Origin: Planctomycetota bacterium
Lineage (GTDB): Bacteria; Planctomycetota; Phycisphaerae; UBA1845
Assembly (NCBI GenBank): GCA_016200265.1
Contig: JACQFE010000003.1
Location: forward strand, 1,126-65,125
Direction: 5' to 3'
Length of the DNA: 64,000 nt
Below, one piece after another: positions 53,803-64,000 of the stretch; position 1 is the stretch's first letter, and each line of letters opens with the position of its first letter. A program made the position numbers and the translations under genes. The notes below the pieces were generated by a model that was not told the origin of the DNA, did not search any database, and was given only the letters and a program-made list of their open reading frames with translations.

Positions 53803-56331
53803 ATGTCCATAAATCCCCGGCTGACTATGTTTTTCGTCTTGTTGGCGGCACCTGTCATCGTTCGCGGTCAATCATGCCAAACCTGGCGGAATCGGACCCC
53901 GCAAATCTTCTCCCGCAGTTATGGAAAGATGGTGTACGACAGTCGGCGTGGCATGTCCGTTCTCTATGGCGGAATTCGCGGTGAGTATCGCGGCTTCGAC
54001 ACCGAGACATGGGAATGGGACGGCGCGGCTTGGACGTTACGAGGCACATGGGGACCGCCGGCGCGGAAGAATCAAGCGATGACATATGATGGCGGGCGCG
54101 GAGTCACGGTCCTGTTCAGCGGCAGTTATTACATGCAGAGTGCGTTGGTTAACGACACTTGGGAATGGGATGGGCATGGTTGGCGGCAGCGTATTCCGGC
54201 GCATTCTCCACCGGGTCGTTATGATTCATCGATGACTTATGACAGCGCGCGGGGTGTCACTGTTCTCTTTGGCGGCCGGTCCGATGCCGGTGAACTCAAT
54301 GATACGTGGGAATGGGATGGGACAGACTGGACACAACGGCACCCAAGCACGTCGCCGCCCAAACGATGGGAGCATGCCCTTGTCTTCGATGCAAACCGGC
54401 GTGTAACAGTTCTCTTTGGTGGCCTGGATGATTCGATCGGTTCATATAGCGACACTTGGGAATGGAATGGACAAGACTGGACGCTGGCCAGCAATGTCGG
54501 CCCTAGGGACGGAGGACATGCAATGGCCTTCGACTCTGCGCGAGCCGTCGTCGTACTGTTCACCAGTTACTACGCCATCACCGATCCTGGGAGCACGTGG
54601 GAATGGGACGGCACAGTGTGGGTTGAACGAACCACAAATGGCCCGGCTGCACGACGTGGATACACAATGGCATTCGATGAGTCGCGTGGCGCGACCGTAA
54701 TGTTCGGCGGCACAAGCAGTGGCGATCTTTGGGAATGGAACGGCAACAATTGGACGATGCGATTGGGTGGCGTTTTTTCCGCTTTGCCCTCGCCAGCATT
54801 TGTGCCTGCAATGGCTTTTGATTCCCAGCGACAAGTCTCCGTTCTGTTAACCAAATCAACAACGGACAGTGAAACTTGGGAATGGGACGGGAATTCATGG
54901 ACGCGGCGGGCAATTGGCGGTCCCTCGGCCCGGACCGGAGCTGCGATGGCGTACGATCGGGCGCGACGGGTCACAGTCACATTCGGAGGTTATGGATCGG
55001 ACTACCTCGGCGACACATGGGAATGGGATGGAGGTTCATGGACTTTTCGCGACGTGACCGGCCCACCGCCACGTAGAGGGGCGAGCATGGCATACGATAC
55101 ATCTCGACAAGTCATGGTTCTGTTCGGCGGCACGAATGGTTCCGAGTTTGGTGACACATGGGAATGGGACGGAAATCTGTGGACGCTGCGTGCAGACTCC
55201 GGACCTGTGCCCCGTTTTGCACACGCGATGGCGTTTGATGAATCGCGCCACGTGACGGTGATGTTTGGAGGGGGACAAGGAAGTTTCCTTGGTACAATTG
55301 AGTTGAATGGAACCTGGGAGTGGGATGGGAGCATTTGGCAACAACGCATCGCGCCGTCCCCACACGGGCGATATGCCCACACGTTAATCTACGATTCAAC
55401 CCGTCACGTTAGCATTCTCTATGGCGGCGAATTTTTTGGCCCGCTCGATGTTCCCGTGTCACTCAGTGACACGTGGGAATGGGATGGCAATTCCTGGTCT
55501 GAGATGGGTGATCAACGCCCGTCTGCTCGCGCGGGCCACGCGGCGGCATTTGATTCGGCACGTGGTGTAACGGTGTTGTTCGGCGGAACGGGTTTTCCTG
55601 AGACGTGGGAATATCCATGCGCTGCAGGATGTCCATTTGTAGCCGATGCGCCGATTCCGGAAGGGTACGCCGCCTGCAACGGATGCTATGCGAAAAAGAA
55701 CCGCTATATCTCGTTCACCGCGCCGTCGCTCGTGCCGGGCACAAGTTCAATGGCGCTTCGCGTGACTCTCGGACCATCTCCTGATCCGACAACGTGCCAG
55801 GGGTCACCCGATCGGCGAACTCTCGACAGTATCGACATGTGGGTAGGACCGGAGGTACTTACCTCGGGCGGTTTGCCCACAGGAGTTTACGGCCTTCAGC
55901 CGGTTCCGCTTTTCCGCGACTGGTCAACCGTTTCCGGCGGCATCGTTCACGTTTCCGATTGCAATATCGTTCCGTGCGCCGCTTACACTGTTCACGCACT
56001 GACCGACGTGGTATGCGACCCGATGGTATTTGGAGGGTTCTCACCCGCATTGGTTCTGCCGACCAACTCGGTTTGGGGTGACGTGGTCGGAAGTAATGAT
56101 TCACAACCGGGAAATCAGATCGTGAACATCTCCGACGTGGCCGCAGTCGTCGACTGCTTCCGTGAGGTCCCCGGAGCACCGCCAAATACCTGGTGCGACT
56201 TGGGTGCCGAACTGCCCACGCAAGGCGTCAACCTCACGCCGGACATTTCCGATGTGGCTCTTGCCGTGGACGCATTTCGCGGCTTTTCGTATCCGTTTTC
56301 CGGCCCGTCCGCGCCGGCAACATGTCATTGA
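53803..56331 (+). CDS. Secreted double Kelch-like propeller (12 TWEWDG repeats) with dockerin-like C-terminal module
   Basis: Signal peptide; 12 repeats; tail KKNRYISF...WGDVVG...NISDVAAVVDCF...DISDVALAVDAF.G..YP. Confidence 0.9.
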   Translation: MSINPRLTMFFVLLAAPVIVRGQSCQTWRNRTPQIFSRSYGKMVYDSRRGMSVLYGGIRGEYRGFDTETWEWDGAAWTLRGTWGPPARKNQAMTYDGGRGVTVLFSGSYYMQSALVNDTWEWDGHGWRQRIPAHSPPGRYDSSMTYDSARGVTVLFGGRSDAGELNDTWEWDGTDWTQRHPSTSPPKRWEHALVFDANRRVTVLFGGLDDSIGSYSDTWEWNGQDWTLASNVGPRDGGHAMAFDSARAVVVLFTSYYAITDPGSTWEWDGTVWVERTTNGPAARRGYTMAFDESRGATVMFGGTSSGDLWEWNGNNWTMRLGGVFSALPSPAFVPAMAFDSQRQVSVLLTKSTTDSETWEWDGNSWTRRAIGGPSARTGAAMAYDRARRVTVTFGGYGSDYLGDTWEWDGGSWTFRDVTGPPPRRGASMAYDTSRQVMVLFGGTNGSEFGDTWEWDGNLWTLRADSGPVPRFAHAMAFDESRHVTVMFGGGQGSFLGTIELNGTWEWDGSIWQQRIAPSPHGRYAHTLIYDSTRHVSILYGGEFFGPLDVPVSLSDTWEWDGNSWSEMGDQRPSARAGHAAAFDSARGVTVLFGGTGFPETWEYPCAAGCPFVADAPIPEGYAACNGCYAKKNRYISFTAPSLVPGTSSMALRVTLGPSPDPTTCQGSPDRRTLDSIDMWVGPEVLTSGGLPTGVYGLQPVPLFRDWSTVSGGIVHVSDCNIVPCAAYTVHALTDVVCDPMVFGGFSPALVLPTNSVWGDVVGSNDSQPGNQIVNISDVAAVVDCFREVPGAPPNTWCDLGAELPTQGVNLTPDISDVALAVDAFRGFSYPFSGPSAPATCH

Positions 56332-56380: not shown

Positions 56381-59300
56381 TCATATGCTTGCTCGTTTCC
56401 CGCGATGGCAGAGGTACCGACCCATGGAACGGATAGCCTGGTCGCATGATGGGAATACCGGCACGCCAGCTTTGCGCATCTTGCTTGCAAGCACTTCGTA
56501 GGGCCGACCGCAATCAATCACCACGGCCAACGGCTTTTCGCTCGACGCGGTGATCGCCGCCAATTCATCAACCAGCGATCTCGCGCCGCTCTGCAATTCT
56601 TCTGGAGTCGTCTTGAGTTCGGATGTAAAAGGCACTACGGACACGACCAGCGCGTCCACGCCGCCATCTTCGATCATTGCTTTCGCGCAAGCGGCGTAGA
56701 CGGCCTCATTCGCCATGGGCGTGACGTCCAGCGGATTTCGAACGTTCACCAGCTTGTCGAGTTTCGCCGGGGCAAGAAATTCGCGAATTCGATCTTGCGA
56801 GGCCAAGGAAAGTGCGGCCACCTCCAGCGCATACCGTACGCCGATGATCGTATCGGCCATTCCCACAACTTCGAATCCCGCGTTGGAGAGAATTCCAATC
56901 CGCCTGCCGTGAACCTTCTTGGCATGAAACAGCGTCGCAAGTTCCAGGACCTGTTCGAATTCCTTGAACGTATCCACAACGATCGCGCCGGCCTGGGCAA
57001 TGGACGTCTGGCAAACGTCATAATCCCCTGCGATCGAGGCCGTGTGTCCGGCGGTGGCCGATCGACCCGGGGCCGTGCGGCCGGCTTTGTAAAAAACGAC
57101 CGTTTTTCCACTCTCCACGACGGACTTCAATGCGCGGACAAATTCCAACCCGTCTCCGTCGCAGAATCCTTCCATGTACACGCCGATGGCGTCGAGGTCG
57201 TTTCTCGTCCCCACGGCGGCAAACAAATCGGAAACGGTGAGATCAATCTGGTTTCCAATGGTGATCGCCAGGCTCGGGTTGATTGCTTCTAAATTGCTCA
57301 TCCGCGTAATGGCGAACCCGCCACTTTGGGTGATCAGTGCCGTACGCGTCGTCGGTTCACCGCGCCGGGCATCAAGCTTCTCGCGTGGAGTGAAAAACGT
57401 GTCGTAGCGCCCCGGACGCGAGCGAATACCAAGAGTGTTTCCTCCCAGCACGATGAGACCGGCGCCCGGCAGCTCACGTGACGAAGTGATTTTGCTTTGC
57501 AATAGATCCTGGAGCGTTTCGGTCCCGGCGGTTTCCCCCAACCCACCGGGAATGAGAATGATCGAGCTGACCTTGCCGGAGGCGATGGCGCCGTCAAACA
57601 ATTCAGCCAGGCCATGCGAAACCGAAATCACAAGCACATCGATTTCTTCCGGCAGATGTTGAACGTCGCTCACACAGCGCACGCCATTGATCTCCGTCGT
57701 GCCGTCTTTGATGACGTAAAGATGCTCGCGAGAAAAACCGCAATCCAAGATATTTTCAAGAATGATCCGGCCAAAATTCTCGCGTTTCCCGGAGACACCG
57801 ACCACGGCAATCGAGCGAGGTTCCAATAGATTTGCGATTTTCTTTCTGGGTCGAGCCAGCCGTAGTGGCGTGATGCTTCCCAATCGCCCGCGGCCATCAA
57901 GGGGAACCATCTTTTCATGCGAAAAGGCAAATGGATTGACCTCGAGCTCCAGAAGTGAACTCGGAGCATTCGTGTCACCGCTGAACCGCCGGGCAATCGC
58001 CAAGAAGGCTCGAAAACACCGGATGAGTTCGTCATCGCTGACAACACGATGATGCCCTCGAATGCGCCCGGCGAGCACGTCGTACGCGGCCGTTGTTTTG
58101 AACAACTCGAAGAAATCCTCGGCCGTTGTTTCATGGACCAGCGCCTTGGCAACTGCCACACCGGGCTTCATCTTGTGGGCCAGGTATTCCGTGTCCACGC
58201 CTCCCAGTCCGGCGGCGATCACGTTGCCGAATTCGCGAGAAAAGCGGATGCCGACGAACAATTCCTGTCCAAAGCCCGATTCTTCATGCTCAATACACTC
58301 GACGAGCAGCACACCTTCGACGTTGGCACCGGTCTTGGCGCGTCGCTCGACGAGCTTGCGGAGGGATTCATCCACAGAGTCCGCGTCTTTCGCTACAAAG
58401 ACAACCCCGCCCACGTCGGACTTGTGGGTGATGTCGCGCGAAATGATCTTCAGGACAACGCGATCGCCGGGGAACGAATCAATGTCCGCTTGTCTCACCG
58501 TCTCCGCCGGGCGAATGACCCGATGTCGCGGCGGCGAAATCGCACCCGCCAATTCCACGATTTGGTAGACTTCGTGCTCAAACAGAGATGAGCGTCCTTC
58601 GAGCAACGCTTTTTGAAGAACCTGCGAAATTCCAGACTCTTCGGCGGCCGAAAGCTTCGCGTCTTGATCCACTCCATCCACGTGAGCCTTTACAGCTCGC
58701 CCGGCAAGAAGAGCCTCACTGCTCACGTTTGCCATCCATTCGCGAACGGTCTTTGGCTCTTGGGTGGAGCGAATGGCCTCGGAATACGCGGACGCCGCCA
58801 GCCGACCGAGCTGAAACGCCTTGCGATTCGCATCCACCACGCGGGCGCCTTTCGACTGCAATTGCCGGGCGATCGCTTCTTGAAGTTCATCCGCAGAAAA
58901 GCCCAGTCGCGATGATGCCGCACCCAAAAGCACCGCGTTGGCCGCGAGGACCGCGCCGGCCTCCCGCGCCCAACGCGACGCGTCAATCAGGACGTTCCGT
59001 TGTTCGGACGAAATTCTCTCCAGCACGCCCTCAATCGGCGGATAATTGGCCATATTTACGAGCGGCAGAGTGTTCGAGATGATGCAGCCCGTGTCGCTCA
59101 GGTAGCTCGCATAACGCAGGGCTTCGAGCGGCTCCATCGAAAGAATCAAATCGCATTCCCCAAGCGGAATCAAGTCGCTGTGAATCGTCTGGTCAGACAC
59201 CCTCACATGGGAATAGACGGACCCACCACGCTGCGACATGCCGTGGACTTCCGACTCTTTGGCGTTCCATCCACGGCTGATGGCCGCATTGGAAATCGCC

Positions 59301-59416
59301 TTCGCAATGGTCAGAATTCCCTGCCCCCCGACGCCCGCAATAATGACATTCAACCGCACGTGCGTCCGTGGTGAGGTCACAGGCTTCGTGATGACTTCGT
59401 TAGACTGCAACGGCAT
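56381..59416 (-). CDS. iorB: IorB (gamma-type) domain fused to ADP-forming acyl-CoA synthetase (ATP-grasp beta, then CoA-binding alpha domains)
   Basis: GVGGQGIL..SEVHGMSQRGGSV.SHVR; VLKIIS..ITHKSDVGGV and ELEVNP; EPRSIAVVG.S, TQSGG, GNQIDL, TAGHTASIAG, SNAG. Confidence 0.9.
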   Translation of the reverse strand: MPLQSNEVITKPVTSPRTHVRLNVIIAGVGGQGILTIAKAISNAAISRGWNAKESEVHGMSQRGGSVYSHVRVSDQTIHSDLIPLGECDLILSMEPLEALRYASYLSDTGCIISNTLPLVNMANYPPIEGVLERISSEQRNVLIDASRWAREAGAVLAANAVLLGAASSRLGFSADELQEAIARQLQSKGARVVDANRKAFQLGRLAASAYSEAIRSTQEPKTVREWMANVSSEALLAGRAVKAHVDGVDQDAKLSAAEESGISQVLQKALLEGRSSLFEHEVYQIVELAGAISPPRHRVIRPAETVRQADIDSFPGDRVVLKIISRDITHKSDVGGVVFVAKDADSVDESLRKLVERRAKTGANVEGVLLVECIEHEESGFGQELFVGIRFSREFGNVIAAGLGGVDTEYLAHKMKPGVAVAKALVHETTAEDFFELFKTTAAYDVLAGRIRGHHRVVSDDELIRCFRAFLAIARRFSGDTNAPSSLLELEVNPFAFSHEKMVPLDGRGRLGSITPLRLARPRKKIANLLEPRSIAVVGVSGKRENFGRIILENILDCGFSREHLYVIKDGTTEINGVRCVSDVQHLPEEIDVLVISVSHGLAELFDGAIASGKVSSIILIPGGLGETAGTETLQDLLQSKITSSRELPGAGLIVLGGNTLGIRSRPGRYDTFFTPREKLDARRGEPTTRTALITQSGGFAITRMSNLEAINPSLAITIGNQIDLTVSDLFAAVGTRNDLDAIGVYMEGFCDGDGLEFVRALKSVVESGKTVVFYKAGRTAPGRSATAGHTASIAGDYDVCQTSIAQAGAIVVDTFKEFEQVLELATLFHAKKVHGRRIGILSNAGFEVVGMADTIIGVRYALEVAALSLASQDRIREFLAPAKLDKLVNVRNPLDVTPMANEAVYAACAKAMIEDGGVDALVVSVVPFTSELKTTPEELQSGARSLVDELAAITASSEKPLAVVIDCGRPYEVLASKMRKAGVPVFPSCDQAIRSMGRYLCHRGKRASI

Positions 59417-61055
59417 CCTCCGATCGCCCGCATCCGGCGGGCAAAGTCGCGCGGCGCTTCATGTGAATGCACGGGCGGCTTGACACAATGACCGATAGCC
59501 CGGGATACGCAATCTCCCGCTGCAACAGGCGGACGTTCGCATCATGTTCTTTTCGAATTGGATCAATCTGAAAGATACGCCTGGCGTCGACTCCCAGCCC
59601 CCGAAGTAGCCGAATGAATTGTTCGCCGGTGACAAATGGCTCCTGACCGCCCGTCATCGCAATCCCTGAATTATCCATGATGATCACGGTCATGTTCGCA
59701 TTTTCCGCAGCGGCCGCGATCATGGTTCCAAGCCCGGAGTGAATGAATGTCGAATCTCCGATCGTACAGATGACAGGCGAGACGCCGGCTTTGGCCGCAC
59801 CCAGCGCCATGCCGATCGAAGCACCCATCTCAACGCATGTATGAACTGCGTTGTACGGCGGATACGCGCCCAGCGTGTAGCAACCGATGTCGCTGAACAA
59901 ATAGGGTTTGCTGTCGCCGCCCAGTGCGTCGACCAGAACCTGAAATGTGTCGCAATGCGGACAGCCCTGACAGAGGCACGGCGGGCGCGGCGGAAGCACG
60001 TACGATCGCTCGACCGCGCCGTCCGAATTCGACGCGGCGTCGCCCTTCGCCCAGAGCATTGAAATCGCCTTTCGCACAAGATCGACGCTGAGCTCCCCGT
60101 CCGGCGGCAAATGTCTACTCAATCTGCCCGCAATCGTCTTGCCCGGCACACCCATCAAACCCATGATCCGAGTCTCGACAAATGGATAACCATCCTCAAG
60201 CACCAGAATCTCGTCGCAGTGGTTCACCAGACGTTTGATCAGGTTTGTCGGAATGGGCGATACGCAGAGTTTGAGGATGGAATACGAAGGATCATCGCCA
60301 ATCGCTTCCAAGAAATAGTTGTTGGCGATGCCGCACGCAATCACGCCGCGTGACCCATTCAGTTTGAGTCGATTCGCCGGACACCGCTCGCTGTAGCCTC
60401 GCAATTCGGGTTGCAAATCAATGACCCGGCGATTCCGCCTCCGCGCATTCGGCGGAAGAAGAACCCAATCGTTTGTATTGCCTCGTGCCCGATCTGCTGG
60501 CGGAACGTTCGCTGCGCGGCGTGCCACTGGGGCCTCACTATGCGCAAGCCGCGTCACCATTCGAATCATCACCGGCGTGCCCAGCCGCTCGGATAGCGCG
60601 AACGCTTCTCGCGTCAGGTCGTAGGCCTCTTGCTGCGTCGATGGCTCAAAGAGCGGAAGACGTGCGAAATCCGCATAACACCTTGTGTCTTGCTCATTTT
60701 GGGAAGAGTGCATCCCCGGATCGTCGGCCACCACCACGACAAGACCGCCGTTCGCCCCGGTCAGAGCCGAACTCATCAATGGATCGGCGGCCACATTCAA
60801 ACCCACGTGCTTCATGGATACTATGGCTCGCCTGCCGACATACGACATGCCAAGAGCTTCCTCGAACGCGATCTTTTCATTCGCGGACCACCGCGCGGCG
60901 ATGGCTGGGCGTTCGGCGCCATTCATTTTGCGAGACCGCTCTTCGATGCATTCGAAGATCTCGGTGGCCGGCGTTCCCGGATAGGAAAAGGCCCCGCTGA
61001 TTCCGGCATCGATGGCCGCGACACCGACCGCCTCATCGCCCAGCAAGAGTTCCAT
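59400..61055 (-). CDS. iorA: Indolepyruvate:ferredoxin oxidoreductase alpha subunit lacking the C-terminal ferredoxin
   Basis: LLGDEAV, YPGTPATE, NEKIAFE, MKHVGLNVAAD, DDPGMHSSQNEQD, LCQGCPH, DIGCYTLG, GDSTFIHSG. Confidence 0.92.
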   Translation of the reverse strand: MELLLGDEAVGVAAIDAGISGAFSYPGTPATEIFECIEERSRKMNGAERPAIAARWSANEKIAFEEALGMSYVGRRAIVSMKHVGLNVAADPLMSSALTGANGGLVVVVADDPGMHSSQNEQDTRCYADFARLPLFEPSTQQEAYDLTREAFALSERLGTPVMIRMVTRLAHSEAPVARRAANVPPADRARGNTNDWVLLPPNARRRNRRVIDLQPELRGYSERCPANRLKLNGSRGVIACGIANNYFLEAIGDDPSYSILKLCVSPIPTNLIKRLVNHCDEILVLEDGYPFVETRIMGLMGVPGKTIAGRLSRHLPPDGELSVDLVRKAISMLWAKGDAASNSDGAVERSYVLPPRPPCLCQGCPHCDTFQVLVDALGGDSKPYLFSDIGCYTLGAYPPYNAVHTCVEMGASIGMALGAAKAGVSPVICTIGDSTFIHSGLGTMIAAAAENANMTVIIMDNSGIAMTGGQEPFVTGEQFIRLLRGLGVDARRIFQIDPIRKEHDANVRLLQREIAYPGLSVIVSSRPCIHMKRRATLPAGCGRSEDAVAV

Positions 61056-61084: not shown

Positions 61085-63370
61085 TCACAATAATGCGTTC
61101 TCCGACATCGCCTTCAGCCGCATCCAACGCCGGTCCACTTCGTCCTGCACTTCCTGCAGAAGCGGGGCATAGTCCGGGGTCAGCAAGTGACGATACGCGC
61201 CGCCCATTTTCCGAAATGCATCCGAAACCGGCACCTTCTTTCCACTTTTTTCGGGATCGATCGTCACCCGCGTAATGCCGTGCTCGATCTCGACCAGAGG
61301 GTGCATGCAGGCATTCACCATCGCTTCGACCGCCGAAGGCCCGACGTGTTCGTCCATGCCCCAATTCAGCGGGCACACAGAGAGTGCCTTCACAAATGCG
61401 AATCCGCCCGCTCGAACTGTCGCCTGGGCCTTTCGCGCCTTGCGGATCATATCCACGGCATGTAATTCGGCCGCGGTCGCCAGGTACGGGGCGAAGGTGC
61501 CGCGCAGAATTTCAATAATGTCCTTGTGGTGAGTGAGCTTCCCTTTCTGCGCGGCGCCGAGGTGTGCGTTACTGTTCCTCTGCCCTTTGAATCCGGTGTA
61601 GCAAAGCTGCGAGCCGGTGTTCATGTATCCTTTGTTGTCATATTCCAGCAGGATGAAAGGATCATTGCGCAGCGCCGCTCCGATCACCTGATCCATCCCA
61701 ATATCGTCGCCTCCGTCGCCGGTCACGACGATCGCCGTAATGTCTTCCGGAATCTCCCCACGAGCCTTGTAACGTTTGATCATCTCCACAACGCCGGTGG
61801 CCGTTGACGAGCCGTTATGAAAAAGATTATGGAAGTACGGCACCTTGAAGCTCGTCAGCGGATACCCGGTCGTGACGACCATTCCGCATCCGGTGTTGAA
61901 TAGGAACACGACGTGCCCATCGATGCCGCGAAGGAACAAATTCAGGGTCGTGAAAATACCACATCCCGGGCACGCCGTGTGTTTGTCAAAACGCGTCGGC
62001 ATGGACGACAGGTCCCGAAGATTGACTTTGCCGTCCTTGCCGGCGTTGCAGGAGCACTCCGCCGCGGTCAGTGGCTTGAGTGTCGGGAGAGGATGATAAT
62101 TCTCGTCACCCGCCCAGGCGCCGTAATACCATTTCGTGCGCGCCTCATCCTTGTCCTCCAGCTTCGGCCAGCGCGCCGCGAGATCATACATCGCCAGCGC
62201 ATCTTTGCCCGTGAAATTCAAGCCCCCCACGCCGTATGTTCGCTGGATGATCCGCGCATCGTTGCCGCGCCGCTGCAGGGCCGCCCCAATCTCATTGGCA
62301 AGATAATTGCTTGCCCCGTACTGACTTGCCCGCTCGGCGACGACAATTCGCTTCGCCCCACCGATCGCCGCGACGATTTCATCTTCGGGCCAAGGTCGCA
62401 GCACGATCGGAACCACCAAATTGACCGACTCGCCTTTTTCTTTCAGCTCATCGACCGCATCCTTGGCCGCCTCGCCCGCCGTGTTGAGAACGACCAAACA
62501 TCGCTCCGCGTCGCGATCACCATATTGATGGACAAAGTCATAGTGTCGGCCGCTCAGGAGCGCGAATTCCTTGAAAATTCGCGGCAGCAGTTCCTTCGCC
62601 TGCTCGAACTTGAGGTCCATCTGCACTTTGCAGTTGATCAGATCATCGTTCATGTACGGACCAAACGTCCGCGGATGATTGACATCAAGCAGATTGAATC
62701 GCCCGCTCTCCGCTTCAAGGGTCTTCCTGAATGGCGGCGGCCCAACGAATGTGCGAACGTCATTTTGATCTCGAAAAACCTGGATCCGCCGATTGGCGTG
62801 CGAAGTGTAAAACCCATCATAGGCCACGATCGCCGGCAGATTCACCGCTTCGGAAACCTTGATGGCGATGATGTTCATGTCATAGGCCGCCTGGACGGTG
62901 GGTGCGAGAAGAATGATCCACCCCCACCCAAGTGCGGCGTAAAGGTCAGAGTGACCGTTCTTGATGTTCAGCGGCGCGGAAACGTCGCGCGTGGAAAGAT
63001 TCAGCACCATCGGCAAGCCCAGCCCTGCAATGGCCGGCATCTGCTCGGCCTTGAGCATCAACCCATTCGCGCTGGTCACATCGACCGCGCGCCCACCCGC
63101 GACCGCCACGCCCGCGCAAATCGAAAGCGCCGCAAGCTCCGACGTTCCGATGATGAACGCCAAATCCGTCTCGCCATCAGCGACTGCCTTTGAAACAACC
63201 TCACCCACATCGGATGACGGCGTGATTGGATAATAGCCTTCCGCGTCGTAGCCGATGTCAATGATCGCTTTCGCAACCGCTTCATTGCCATTTCCCAGCC
63301 AGGGGACCTGTATGGCATGACTCAATGCAATGCGATTCGGCGGCCTAGCGATCTGGCTCATCGAAATCAT
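61085..63370 (-). CDS. Fused PorA-PorB 2-oxoacid:ferredoxin oxidoreductase
   Basis: GNEAVA, YYPITPS and TSANG in the alpha half; HTACPGCG, TGC, GDG, DNKGYMNTGSQ and CPLNW in the beta half. Confidence 0.9.
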   Translation of the reverse strand: MISMSQIARPPNRIALSHAIQVPWLGNGNEAVAKAIIDIGYDAEGYYPITPSSDVGEVVSKAVADGETDLAFIIGTSELAALSICAGVAVAGGRAVDVTSANGLMLKAEQMPAIAGLGLPMVLNLSTRDVSAPLNIKNGHSDLYAALGWGWIILLAPTVQAAYDMNIIAIKVSEAVNLPAIVAYDGFYTSHANRRIQVFRDQNDVRTFVGPPPFRKTLEAESGRFNLLDVNHPRTFGPYMNDDLINCKVQMDLKFEQAKELLPRIFKEFALLSGRHYDFVHQYGDRDAERCLVVLNTAGEAAKDAVDELKEKGESVNLVVPIVLRPWPEDEIVAAIGGAKRIVVAERASQYGASNYLANEIGAALQRRGNDARIIQRTYGVGGLNFTGKDALAMYDLAARWPKLEDKDEARTKWYYGAWAGDENYHPLPTLKPLTAAECSCNAGKDGKVNLRDLSSMPTRFDKHTACPGCGIFTTLNLFLRGIDGHVVFLFNTGCGMVVTTGYPLTSFKVPYFHNLFHNGSSTATGVVEMIKRYKARGEIPEDITAIVVTGDGGDDIGMDQVIGAALRNDPFILLEYDNKGYMNTGSQLCYTGFKGQRNSNAHLGAAQKGKLTHHKDIIEILRGTFAPYLATAAELHAVDMIRKARKAQATVRAGGFAFVKALSVCPLNWGMDEHVGPSAVEAMVNACMHPLVEIEHGITRVTIDPEKSGKKVPVSDAFRKMGGAYRHLLTPDYAPLLQEVQDEVDRRWMRLKAMSENALL

Positions 63371-63708
63371 CCTTTCAGGTAATCCAATGCCTTAATCACT
63401 TCCGGCAGGTGCGTGTACGTCGGTCCGCCCTGCATGACGACGGCCACGCCCGCTGCCTCAAGGATCTGTTCTCGCGTCGCTCCGGCCTTGAGGCACTTCT
63501 CGACGTGCATGTTGATGCAACTGACGCAGCGTACCGCCAGTCCGATCCCCAGCGCGATCAATTCCTTTTCGCGAACGCTCAGCGCCCCTTGCTTCATGAT
63601 CGCCTGAAACATCCCGCCGAATGCCCGAACCACATCAGGCATTTCGCTCTTCACGTTTTCCATGCTGGCGGGAAATTCCTCAAAAAAAGTCTCGGTTGCG
63701 GTTGTCAT
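63367..63708 (-). CDS. Carboxymuconolactone decarboxylase/AhpD-like protein (CxxC)
   Basis: GGAG RBS; GALSVREKELIALGI...CVSCINMH...GATREQILEA..V...GG. Confidence 0.9.
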   Translation of the reverse strand: MTTATETFFEEFPASMENVKSEMPDVVRAFGGMFQAIMKQGALSVREKELIALGIGLAVRCVSCINMHVEKCLKAGATREQILEAAGVAVVMQGGPTYTHLPEVIKALDYLKG

Positions 63709-63739
63709 GTTGATTTCTCCCGATTTCAACTTTCCGTCG

Positions 63740-64000
63740 TCAATCTCCAAGACCAGCGTCCGTAAACGTCAGTGCTTTGCCCTTCTTGTTTTCCGGACAC
63801 ACCTCAACGCAGCGCATGCATCCTTTGCAAAACGCCTCATCAATTCCGGCCATCTTCCCCCCCTGCCACCTGAGCCCTCCCGGATCGGAACACACCGTCA
63901 GGCAAATTCCGCAGGACGTGCAGGACTCCGGATGAAACTCAGGAATTTTCCCGCGACCGGCCAGGCGATTGTCGCGCCCGCCGGTGTTGTGCGTCAGCGC
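63740..64000 (-). CDS. C-terminal PorD-type 2x[4Fe-4S] domain of an upstream gamma/delta subunit (partial, runs off window)
   Basis: Manual translation: ...PEFHPESCTSCGICLTVCSDPG...IDEAFCKGCMRCVEVCPENK...GLGD*, stop at 63740-63742. Confidence 0.85.
   Translation of the reverse strand, partial: ALTHNTGGRDNRLAGRGKIPEFHPESCTSCGICLTVCSDPGGLRWQGGKMAGIDEAFCKGCMRCVEVCPENKKGKALTFTDAGLGD

Follow-up and report, generated by a model that had tools for sequence, protein, structure and literature searches.

The succession of an indolepyruvate oxidoreductase (IOR) and an ADP-forming acyl-CoA synthetase (ACD) is a textbook pathway of the Thermococcales. In Pyrococcus and Thermococcus, IOR and ACS II reportedly form a route from arylpyruvate to arylacetate plus ATP, as Mai and Adams are said to have described in 1994 and 1996. 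A 64,000-nucleotide stretch of DNA from a Planctomycetota bacterium of the class Phycisphaerae (assembly GCA_016200265.1, contig JACQFE010000003.1, positions 1,126 to 65,125; hereafter the window) encodes the same two enzyme families in another arrangement. A single gene joins IorB, which is the gamma-type module of a 2-oxoacid:ferredoxin oxidoreductase (OFOR), to an entire ACD, and iorA lies immediately upstream. Together, IorA and the IorB-ACD fusion protein probably convert a 2-oxoacid to its acyl-CoA and then to the free acid plus ATP, with the fusion protein acting as a bifunctional subunit. Arylpyruvates are the likely substrates, and acetyl-CoA is probably also used.

The IOR and ACS II of Pyrococcus furiosus and Thermococcus kodakarensis resemble the planctomycete proteins in both enzyme families, in the consecutive steps proposed (arylpyruvate to arylacetyl-CoA to arylacetate plus ATP), in the catalytic histidines, and in the thiamine-diphosphate and cluster motifs. 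They differ in several respects. The archaeal enzymes are built from four separate polypeptides, whereas in the planctomycete a single chain comprises IorB, ACD-beta, and ACD-alpha. In addition, archaeal IorA carries a C-terminal 2x[4Fe-4S] domain, while the IorA of this locus, whose host is bacterial, has none.

Other described systems share individual features with the locus. The 3-hydroxypropionyl-CoA synthetase (ADP-forming, 9y43) of Nitrosopumilus maritimus is also a single-chain ACD in beta-alpha order and is collinear with residues 280-990 of the fusion protein. However, it has no OFOR gamma module, functions as a ligase in CO2 fixation, and is only about 22-30% identical. The Sulfolobus-type two-subunit OFOR (5b48, lacking domain V) likewise contains a single [4Fe-4S] cluster, the proximal one, and no built-in ferredoxin domain, passing electrons directly to free ferredoxin. 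It belongs to another subfamily, with an alpha subunit of domains III-I-II, a beta subunit of domain VI, and no ACD, in contrast to the IorA (I-II-VI) plus IorB arrangement found here. Precedents for a superfamily member fused to an enzyme acting on the same CoA ester are PatZ/Pat (an ACD-like body with a GNAT domain; 9isq, 9it0) and ATP-citrate lyase (succinyl-CoA-synthetase-like and citryl-CoA lyase modules). In these, the partner domains and chemistry differ and the partner is C-terminal, and the ACD-like part of PatZ is not a working synthetase. Both enzyme families and the pathway logic are known. What is new is that IorB is covalently joined to a whole ACD, that such fusions have recurred independently, and that the fusion is constantly paired with a ferredoxin-less IorA.

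Domain organization of the fusion protein

The fusion is encoded by one open reading frame (ORF) with an ATG start and no internal stops. Its product consists of the IorB/OFOR-gamma module, a helical linker of about 50 residues, the ATP-grasp (beta) half of the ACD, and the ACD alpha half, in that order:

56381-59416, minus strand: IorB-ACD fusion ORF, 1011 codons plus stop (Pfam and NCBIfam)
58772-59359, minus strand: IorB/OFOR gamma module (domain III), residues 20-215 (POR match, NF005324, GVGGQG, Foldseek)
58631-58771, minus strand: linker, residues 216-262 (alignment and AlphaFold2 model)
57872-58630, minus strand: ACD beta half (ATP-grasp, domains 3-4), residues 263-515, including H331
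56384-57844, minus strand: ACD alpha half (CoA-binding, Succ_CoA_lig, C-terminal domain 5), residues 525-1011, including H791

Four Pfam domains are matched far above the gathering score: POR/gamma (PF01558) at residues 30-205, with 129 bits against a cut-off of 27.4, ATP-grasp_5 at 270-509, CoA_binding_2 at 534-664, and Succ_CoA_lig at 691-826. The N-terminal part passes the NCBIfam IorB equivalog NF005324 (235.9 bits; cut-off 222) and scores under the cut-offs of the remaining IorB equivalogs of NCBIfam. Its GVGGQG sequence (G28-G33), corresponding to the GxGGQG nucleotide/CoA loop, is invariant in an alignment of 64 sequences.

The full set of ACD domains (CoA-binding 1 and 2, domain 5, and ATP-grasp 3 and 4) is present. 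The ATP-grasp half harbors the motif THKSDVGG with His-beta, H331 (codon 58424-58426, minus strand), and the alpha half harbors AGHTAS with His-alpha, H791 (codon 57044-57046, minus strand). In the solved ACDs 9y43 and 4xyl, the aligned motifs are HKTDVGG and ASHTGS, and both histidines of the fusion protein are invariant across the 64 homologues. An earlier reading of this DNA from its sequence only had described one 1011-aa ORF fusing IorB to an ACD and had picked out both phosphohistidine motifs; the ORF, the Pfam and NCBIfam matches, and the alignment to solved ACDs bear this out.

The ACD region matches the NCBIfam ACD models collinearly, yet far below their equivalog cut-offs (NF045494, 230 of 1200 bits; NF045492, 220 of 1300; TIGR02717, 215 of 567). 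By these scores, the fusion protein is a member of the ACD family but an orthologue of no characterized enzyme. The exact start of the ORF is slightly uncertain, and the rest of it is secure. The public gene call begins at a TTG at 59410, six bases past a GGAGG, and yields 1009 aa, while the alternative ATG at 59416 abuts the GGAGG. Residues 1-17 are weakly conserved and modeled with low confidence, and homologues mostly begin near residue 20.

An AlphaFold2 model built from the 64-sequence alignment has a mean predicted local distance difference test score (pLDDT) of 86.5 and a pTM of 0.83. Foldseek places its C-terminal 740 residues on 9y43 (TM 0.86, on target) and its N-terminal module on the OFOR gamma subunits (OorC) 3g2e and 8ys5_B (TM 0.83). 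The linker region is modeled as helices (H191-216, H221-230, H233-238, and H257-272) with a short low-confidence spot at 247-250. The loop that carries H791 (781-796) has a pLDDT below 50, which is expected because the phosphohistidine loop swings in this superfamily.

The beta-alpha order of the ACD halves, to which the sequence-only reading had drawn attention, is confirmed but is not unusual. The 705-aa single chain of 9y43 aligns collinearly (E 1e-49), and two NCBIfam models, one for 3-hydroxypropionate-CoA ligase and one for the acetate-CoA ligase of Archaeoglobus, are also collinear and in beta-alpha order. This order is already known, and the unusual element is the IorB module in front of it.

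Authenticity and distribution of the fusion

A fusion seen in a single assembly could be an artefact of assembly or sequencing, in which a lost stop codon or a frameshift joins two neighboring genes. The existence of relatives in which iorB and acd are adjacent yet separate would fit such an origin. A homologue search of 5.8 billion proteins returned 1380 matches, and the best 120 clusters of these were analyzed. All 120 are 52-77% identical to the fusion protein, 974-1068 aa long, and contain the four domains in one protein. In addition, the fusion lies in a single frame in each of 26 genomic loci inspected from different assemblies. Across the best 120 clusters, residues 211-270, which span the linker, are moderately conserved and almost free of gaps (gap fraction 0.00-0.05); the linker is of constant length in the main clade and confidently helical in the model. 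With the frame shared by at least 120 independent public clusters and by the 26 loci, an artefact is extremely improbable and was rejected as an explanation; a stop or frameshift within the linker is accordingly judged very unlikely from these sequences.

The fusion is common in uncultured Planctomycetota. It is found in about 11 of 41 genomes of the same family or order, five others of which have a close unfused ACD, and in only two of 301 genomes sampled evenly across the phylum. Named metagenome-assembled genomes (MAGs) bearing the fusion are labeled Phycisphaerales, Planctomycetota, Myxococcales/'Deltaproteobacteria', and, in one case, 'Cyanobacteria'. Public records name these proteins of about 1000 aa only 'indolepyruvate oxidoreductase subunit beta'. 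The architecture is therefore common in public data, as the sequence-only reading had allowed it might be, but the published description that it had also envisaged was not found. No description or test of the fusion was encountered in the open-access literature, which is absence of evidence only, and this agrees with the earlier remark that no characterized example was known. The nearest published observation concerns Clostridia, some of whose OFOR clusters are located close to genes for ADP-forming ligases (PMC13285125).

The IorA partner

The gene for the second IOR subunit overlaps the fusion ORF:

59400-61055, minus strand: iorA, with a likely start at the ATG at 61055 and a product of about 551 aa (POR_N and TPP_enzyme_C), with a 17-nt overlap with the fusion ORF

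IorA contains the thiamine-diphosphate motif GDSTFIHSG...DN and the cysteines CQGCPHC...C for one proximal [4Fe-4S] cluster. Against TIGR03336 (IOR_alpha), it aligns over positions 3-539 of 595 with 475.7 bits, below the cut-off of 650.9. The C-terminal 2x[4Fe-4S] ferredoxin domain of canonical IOR is absent, with neither a Fer4 Pfam match nor a CxxCxxCxxxCP motif at the C-terminal end of the protein. The motif is also absent from IorA in 18 related loci (L001-L017, L023), and the domain is likewise missing in the nearest relative. The IOR of this locus thus has one cluster and no built-in ferredoxin domain, a feature of the partner that the sequence-only reading overlooked. Several IorA copies of the Phycisphaerales end in short Cys-rich tails (e.g., CGAGCAC and CVGSCGCVC). 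A sequence search for a solved IOR structure found none.

The pairing of the two genes is invariant. The gene iorA stands immediately upstream of the fusion in all 26 loci examined (17 from GTDB species genomes, one from G055, and eight from relatives of the same family or order), and it has this position in the nearest relative, at 77% identity, as well.

Recurrent fusion and unfused relatives

After clustering at 50%, an exhaustive search yields four full-length fused representatives (P0128, P0129, P0143, and P0145) versus hundreds of unfused beta-alpha ACDs of 730-800 aa. P0143 and P0145 have the four domains of the fusion protein, but with shorter linkers, and are placed in distant parts of the ACD tree. 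On this tree, which was made by FastTree only and has some weak forks, the fused state requires at least four changes (gains or losses). Together with the distant placement of P0143 and P0145, this means that the fusion arose more than once. Such recurrence offers good genomic evidence that the IOR and ACD activities work together.

The module also occurs in split form. In the Spirochaetia MAG CAYPZJ010000165.1 (L016 1031-5908, plus strand), iorA (544 aa) is accompanied by an iorB of 293 aa with a linker-like C-terminal tail of about 85 residues and by a separate 790-aa beta-alpha ACD, which starts 32 nt after iorB in a different frame. Adjacent unfused iorA-iorB-acd genes are also found in three genomes of the same phylum and in G334, and these arrangements support a functional link between the IOR and ACD steps. 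The logic of consecutive steps put forward by the sequence-only reading is therefore backed by the invariant iorA neighbor, the recurrent fusions, and the unfused gene sets.

Proposed reaction sequence

The IorB module and the IorA encoded upstream are expected to assemble into a 2-oxoacid:ferredoxin oxidoreductase of the IOR type. In this enzyme, a 2-oxoacid and CoA would be converted to acyl-CoA, CO2, and two electrons, with the electrons leaving the single [4Fe-4S] cluster of IorA for free ferredoxin. The tethered single-chain ACD would then use this acyl-CoA together with ADP and phosphate, releasing the free acid and CoA and forming ATP. This second reaction is predicted to proceed via an acyl-phosphate and two phosphohistidines, that of the mobile loop (H791) and that of the ATP-grasp half (H331).

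Because OFORs and ACDs are both two-fold symmetric dimers, the likely assembly is (IorA)2(IorB-ACD)2. The fusion would set a 1:1 ratio and place the site that consumes the CoA ester beside the site that produces it. It can be hypothesized that CoA is recycled locally by such a tether, as the sequence-only reading had proposed. A stronger version holds that (IorA)2(IorB-ACD)2 is a fixed machine in which the ACD site receives the acyl-CoA directly from the OFOR site and sends the freed CoA back, which would make CoA a near-bound carrier. The helical linker would then be a strut that sets the geometry, and the loss of the ferredoxin domain from IorA would be part of the remodeling. This version is considered unlikely, and unless true channeling is demonstrated, the fusion is mechanistically unsurprising.

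Operon and genome context

Upstream of iorA, the genes on the same strand are, in order, porAB, a carboxymuconolactone-decarboxylase (AhpD-like) gene, and porGD, followed by genes for malic enzyme, a regulator, and a kinase. The iorB-acd fusion is the last gene of this operon. The members within the window are as follows:

61085-63370, minus strand: PorA-PorB fused protein, 761 aa, OFOR domains I, II, and VI, pyruvate/2-oxoisovalerate type
63367-63750, minus strand: carboxymuconolactone-decarboxylase (AhpD-like) gene, 127 aa, between the por genes, overlapping its neighbors by 4 and 11 nt
63740-64000, minus strand: 3' part of the PorG-PorD fused gene (gamma plus 2x[4Fe-4S] delta, 311 aa), which continues to window-equivalent 64675 (L038 2801)

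The division of this pyruvate-type OFOR into fused PorG-PorD and fused PorA-PorB is unusual. The IorB module was also considered as a possible gamma subunit for PorAB, but this idea was rejected because the PorG-PorD gene lies just past the window end; with gamma and delta modules of its own, the POR has no need of the IorB module. Antisense to porAB, a 426-codon frame (61913-63193, plus strand) is arginine-rich and low-complexity-looking, and most likely results simply from the GC richness of the coding DNA. On the other side of the fusion, a convergent gene (53803-56331, plus strand) encodes an 842-aa protein with a signal-like N-terminal segment, many Kelch/beta-propeller repeats ('DTWEWDG'), and a Cys-containing C-terminal region.

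On the 5' side of porGD, a 384-bp gap separates it from the malic enzyme gene, beyond which are encoded a response regulator of the sigma-54 NtrC type and a histidine kinase with a protoglobin domain. A perfect sigma-54 -24/-12 motif, TGGCACACCGTTTGCA, precedes the likely malic-enzyme start (L038 4902-4917, minus strand; G000:C55; window-equivalent 66776-66791). A second motif with one mismatch, TGGCACAGGCAATGCA, lies 38 nt ahead of porGD (L038 2839-2854, minus strand; window-equivalent 64713-64728). Sigma-54 motifs with at most one mismatch number three, versus 0.27 expected. Together with the adjacent regulator and kinase, the motifs suggest that a gas or oxygen sensor may control the POR-IOR-ACD operon.

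This larger operon is particular to the present genome. In tblastn searches, the POR, carboxymuconolactone-decarboxylase, malic-enzyme, and regulator genes were absent near the fusion in 26 other loci and in the nearest relative; only the pair of iorA and iorB-acd thus forms a conserved unit. No conserved neighbor other than iorA was found in the related loci, where ORF picking was confused by long antisense ORFs in the GC-rich DNA.

The fusion is the sole ACD of its own genome, which is 94% complete; the second Succ_CoA_lig match is a SucD-sized frame of 300 aa. Neither acetate kinase (AckA, PF00871) nor phosphotransacetylase (Pta; PF01515, PTA_PTB) was found in this 94%-complete genome. Among the relatives, nine of the 11 bearing the fusion have no acetate kinase, while all five with an unfused ACD have one.

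Substrate and direction

Arylpyruvates derived from aromatic amino acids are the likely substrates of the IorA-IorB part, although the specificity for them in the sequence-only reading was assumed. The ACD half probably also serves acetyl-CoA, because it is the sole ACD in a genome with no Pta or AckA found and its operon includes a pyruvate-type OFOR and malic enzyme. Taken further, these observations could mean that IorA and IorB-ACD form a broad or pyruvate/branched-chain 2-oxoacid oxidoreductase whose ACD half chiefly converts acetyl-CoA, or another short acyl-CoA, to acetate with formation of ATP. The missing acetate kinase in most fusion-bearing relatives is in line with this possibility, as is the divergence of IorA, which falls under the TIGR03336 cut-off and has no ferredoxin domain. 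The POR neighborhood, however, is unique to this genome, IorB clears an IorB equivalog cut-off, and the distribution of acetate kinase is an uncertain guide. AckA is present in two of 11 fusion-bearing and 15 of 30 other genomes, a trend that is not significant (Fisher p = 0.085, n = 41) in genomes that are not phylogenetically independent, and 15 of the 41 relatives have neither ACD nor AckA. A chiefly acetate-forming enzyme is thus possible but doubtful.

The module could also run in the anabolic direction. The ACD half would then use ATP to activate arylacetate or another exogenous acid, and IorA-IorB would reductively carboxylate the CoA ester with reduced ferredoxin to a 2-oxoacid for amino-acid synthesis. 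ACDs are reversible, and the best solved match, 9y43, acts as a ligase. IOR-dependent reductive carboxylation of aryl acids is said to occur in methanogens and rumen anaerobes, reportedly described by Porat et al. in 2004. This direction is nonetheless improbable: the operon here is shared with catabolic-looking genes (malic enzyme and the pyruvate-type OFOR), the fusion is the genome's only candidate for ATP formation from acyl-CoA, and an aminotransferase or acid-uptake gene is never a conserved neighbor in the related loci.

Several points weigh against ATP-forming breakdown of arylpyruvates by cooperating IorA and IorB-ACD. In addition to the nonsignificant AckA trend, members of the fusion family are known from their sequences, and the model informs on the folds rather than on how the IorB module docks onto the ACD body. 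Close unfused ACDs (e.g., P0130, 52% identity) can stand alone without iorB, so the tether is not strictly needed by the ACD. The scores of the ACD part (230 versus 1200 bits) and of IorA (475.7 versus 650.9) are below their cut-offs, and substrate specificity is thus not readable from sequence. Lastly, the closest solved ACD is physiologically a CoA ligase, which makes the catabolic direction less certain. Conversion of a 2-oxoacid, likely an arylpyruvate, to the acid plus ATP is still the probable function of the pair.

Implications

If the two halves cooperate, IorA and IorB-ACD would constitute a compact two-gene, two-protein module that takes a 2-oxoacid to the acid and keeps the energy as reduced ferredoxin and ATP. 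Should the acyl-CoA indeed be channeled, this would be the first known channel from an oxidoreductase to substrate-level phosphorylation, with one particle producing acid, CO2, reduced ferredoxin, and ATP. The fusion is also a stable handle for structural biology on the handover of a CoA ester from an OFOR to the next enzyme.

Under-annotation of these proteins as 'IorB' means that reconstructions of Phycisphaerae and related MAGs may miss the only ADP-forming acyl-CoA synthetase. They could thereby miss what is possibly the only route from acyl-CoA to ATP, since acetate kinase was not found here nor in most of the sampled fusion-bearing relatives. The repeated independent fusions provide genomic evidence that IOR and ACD are paired in bacteria, as they are in the Thermococcales.

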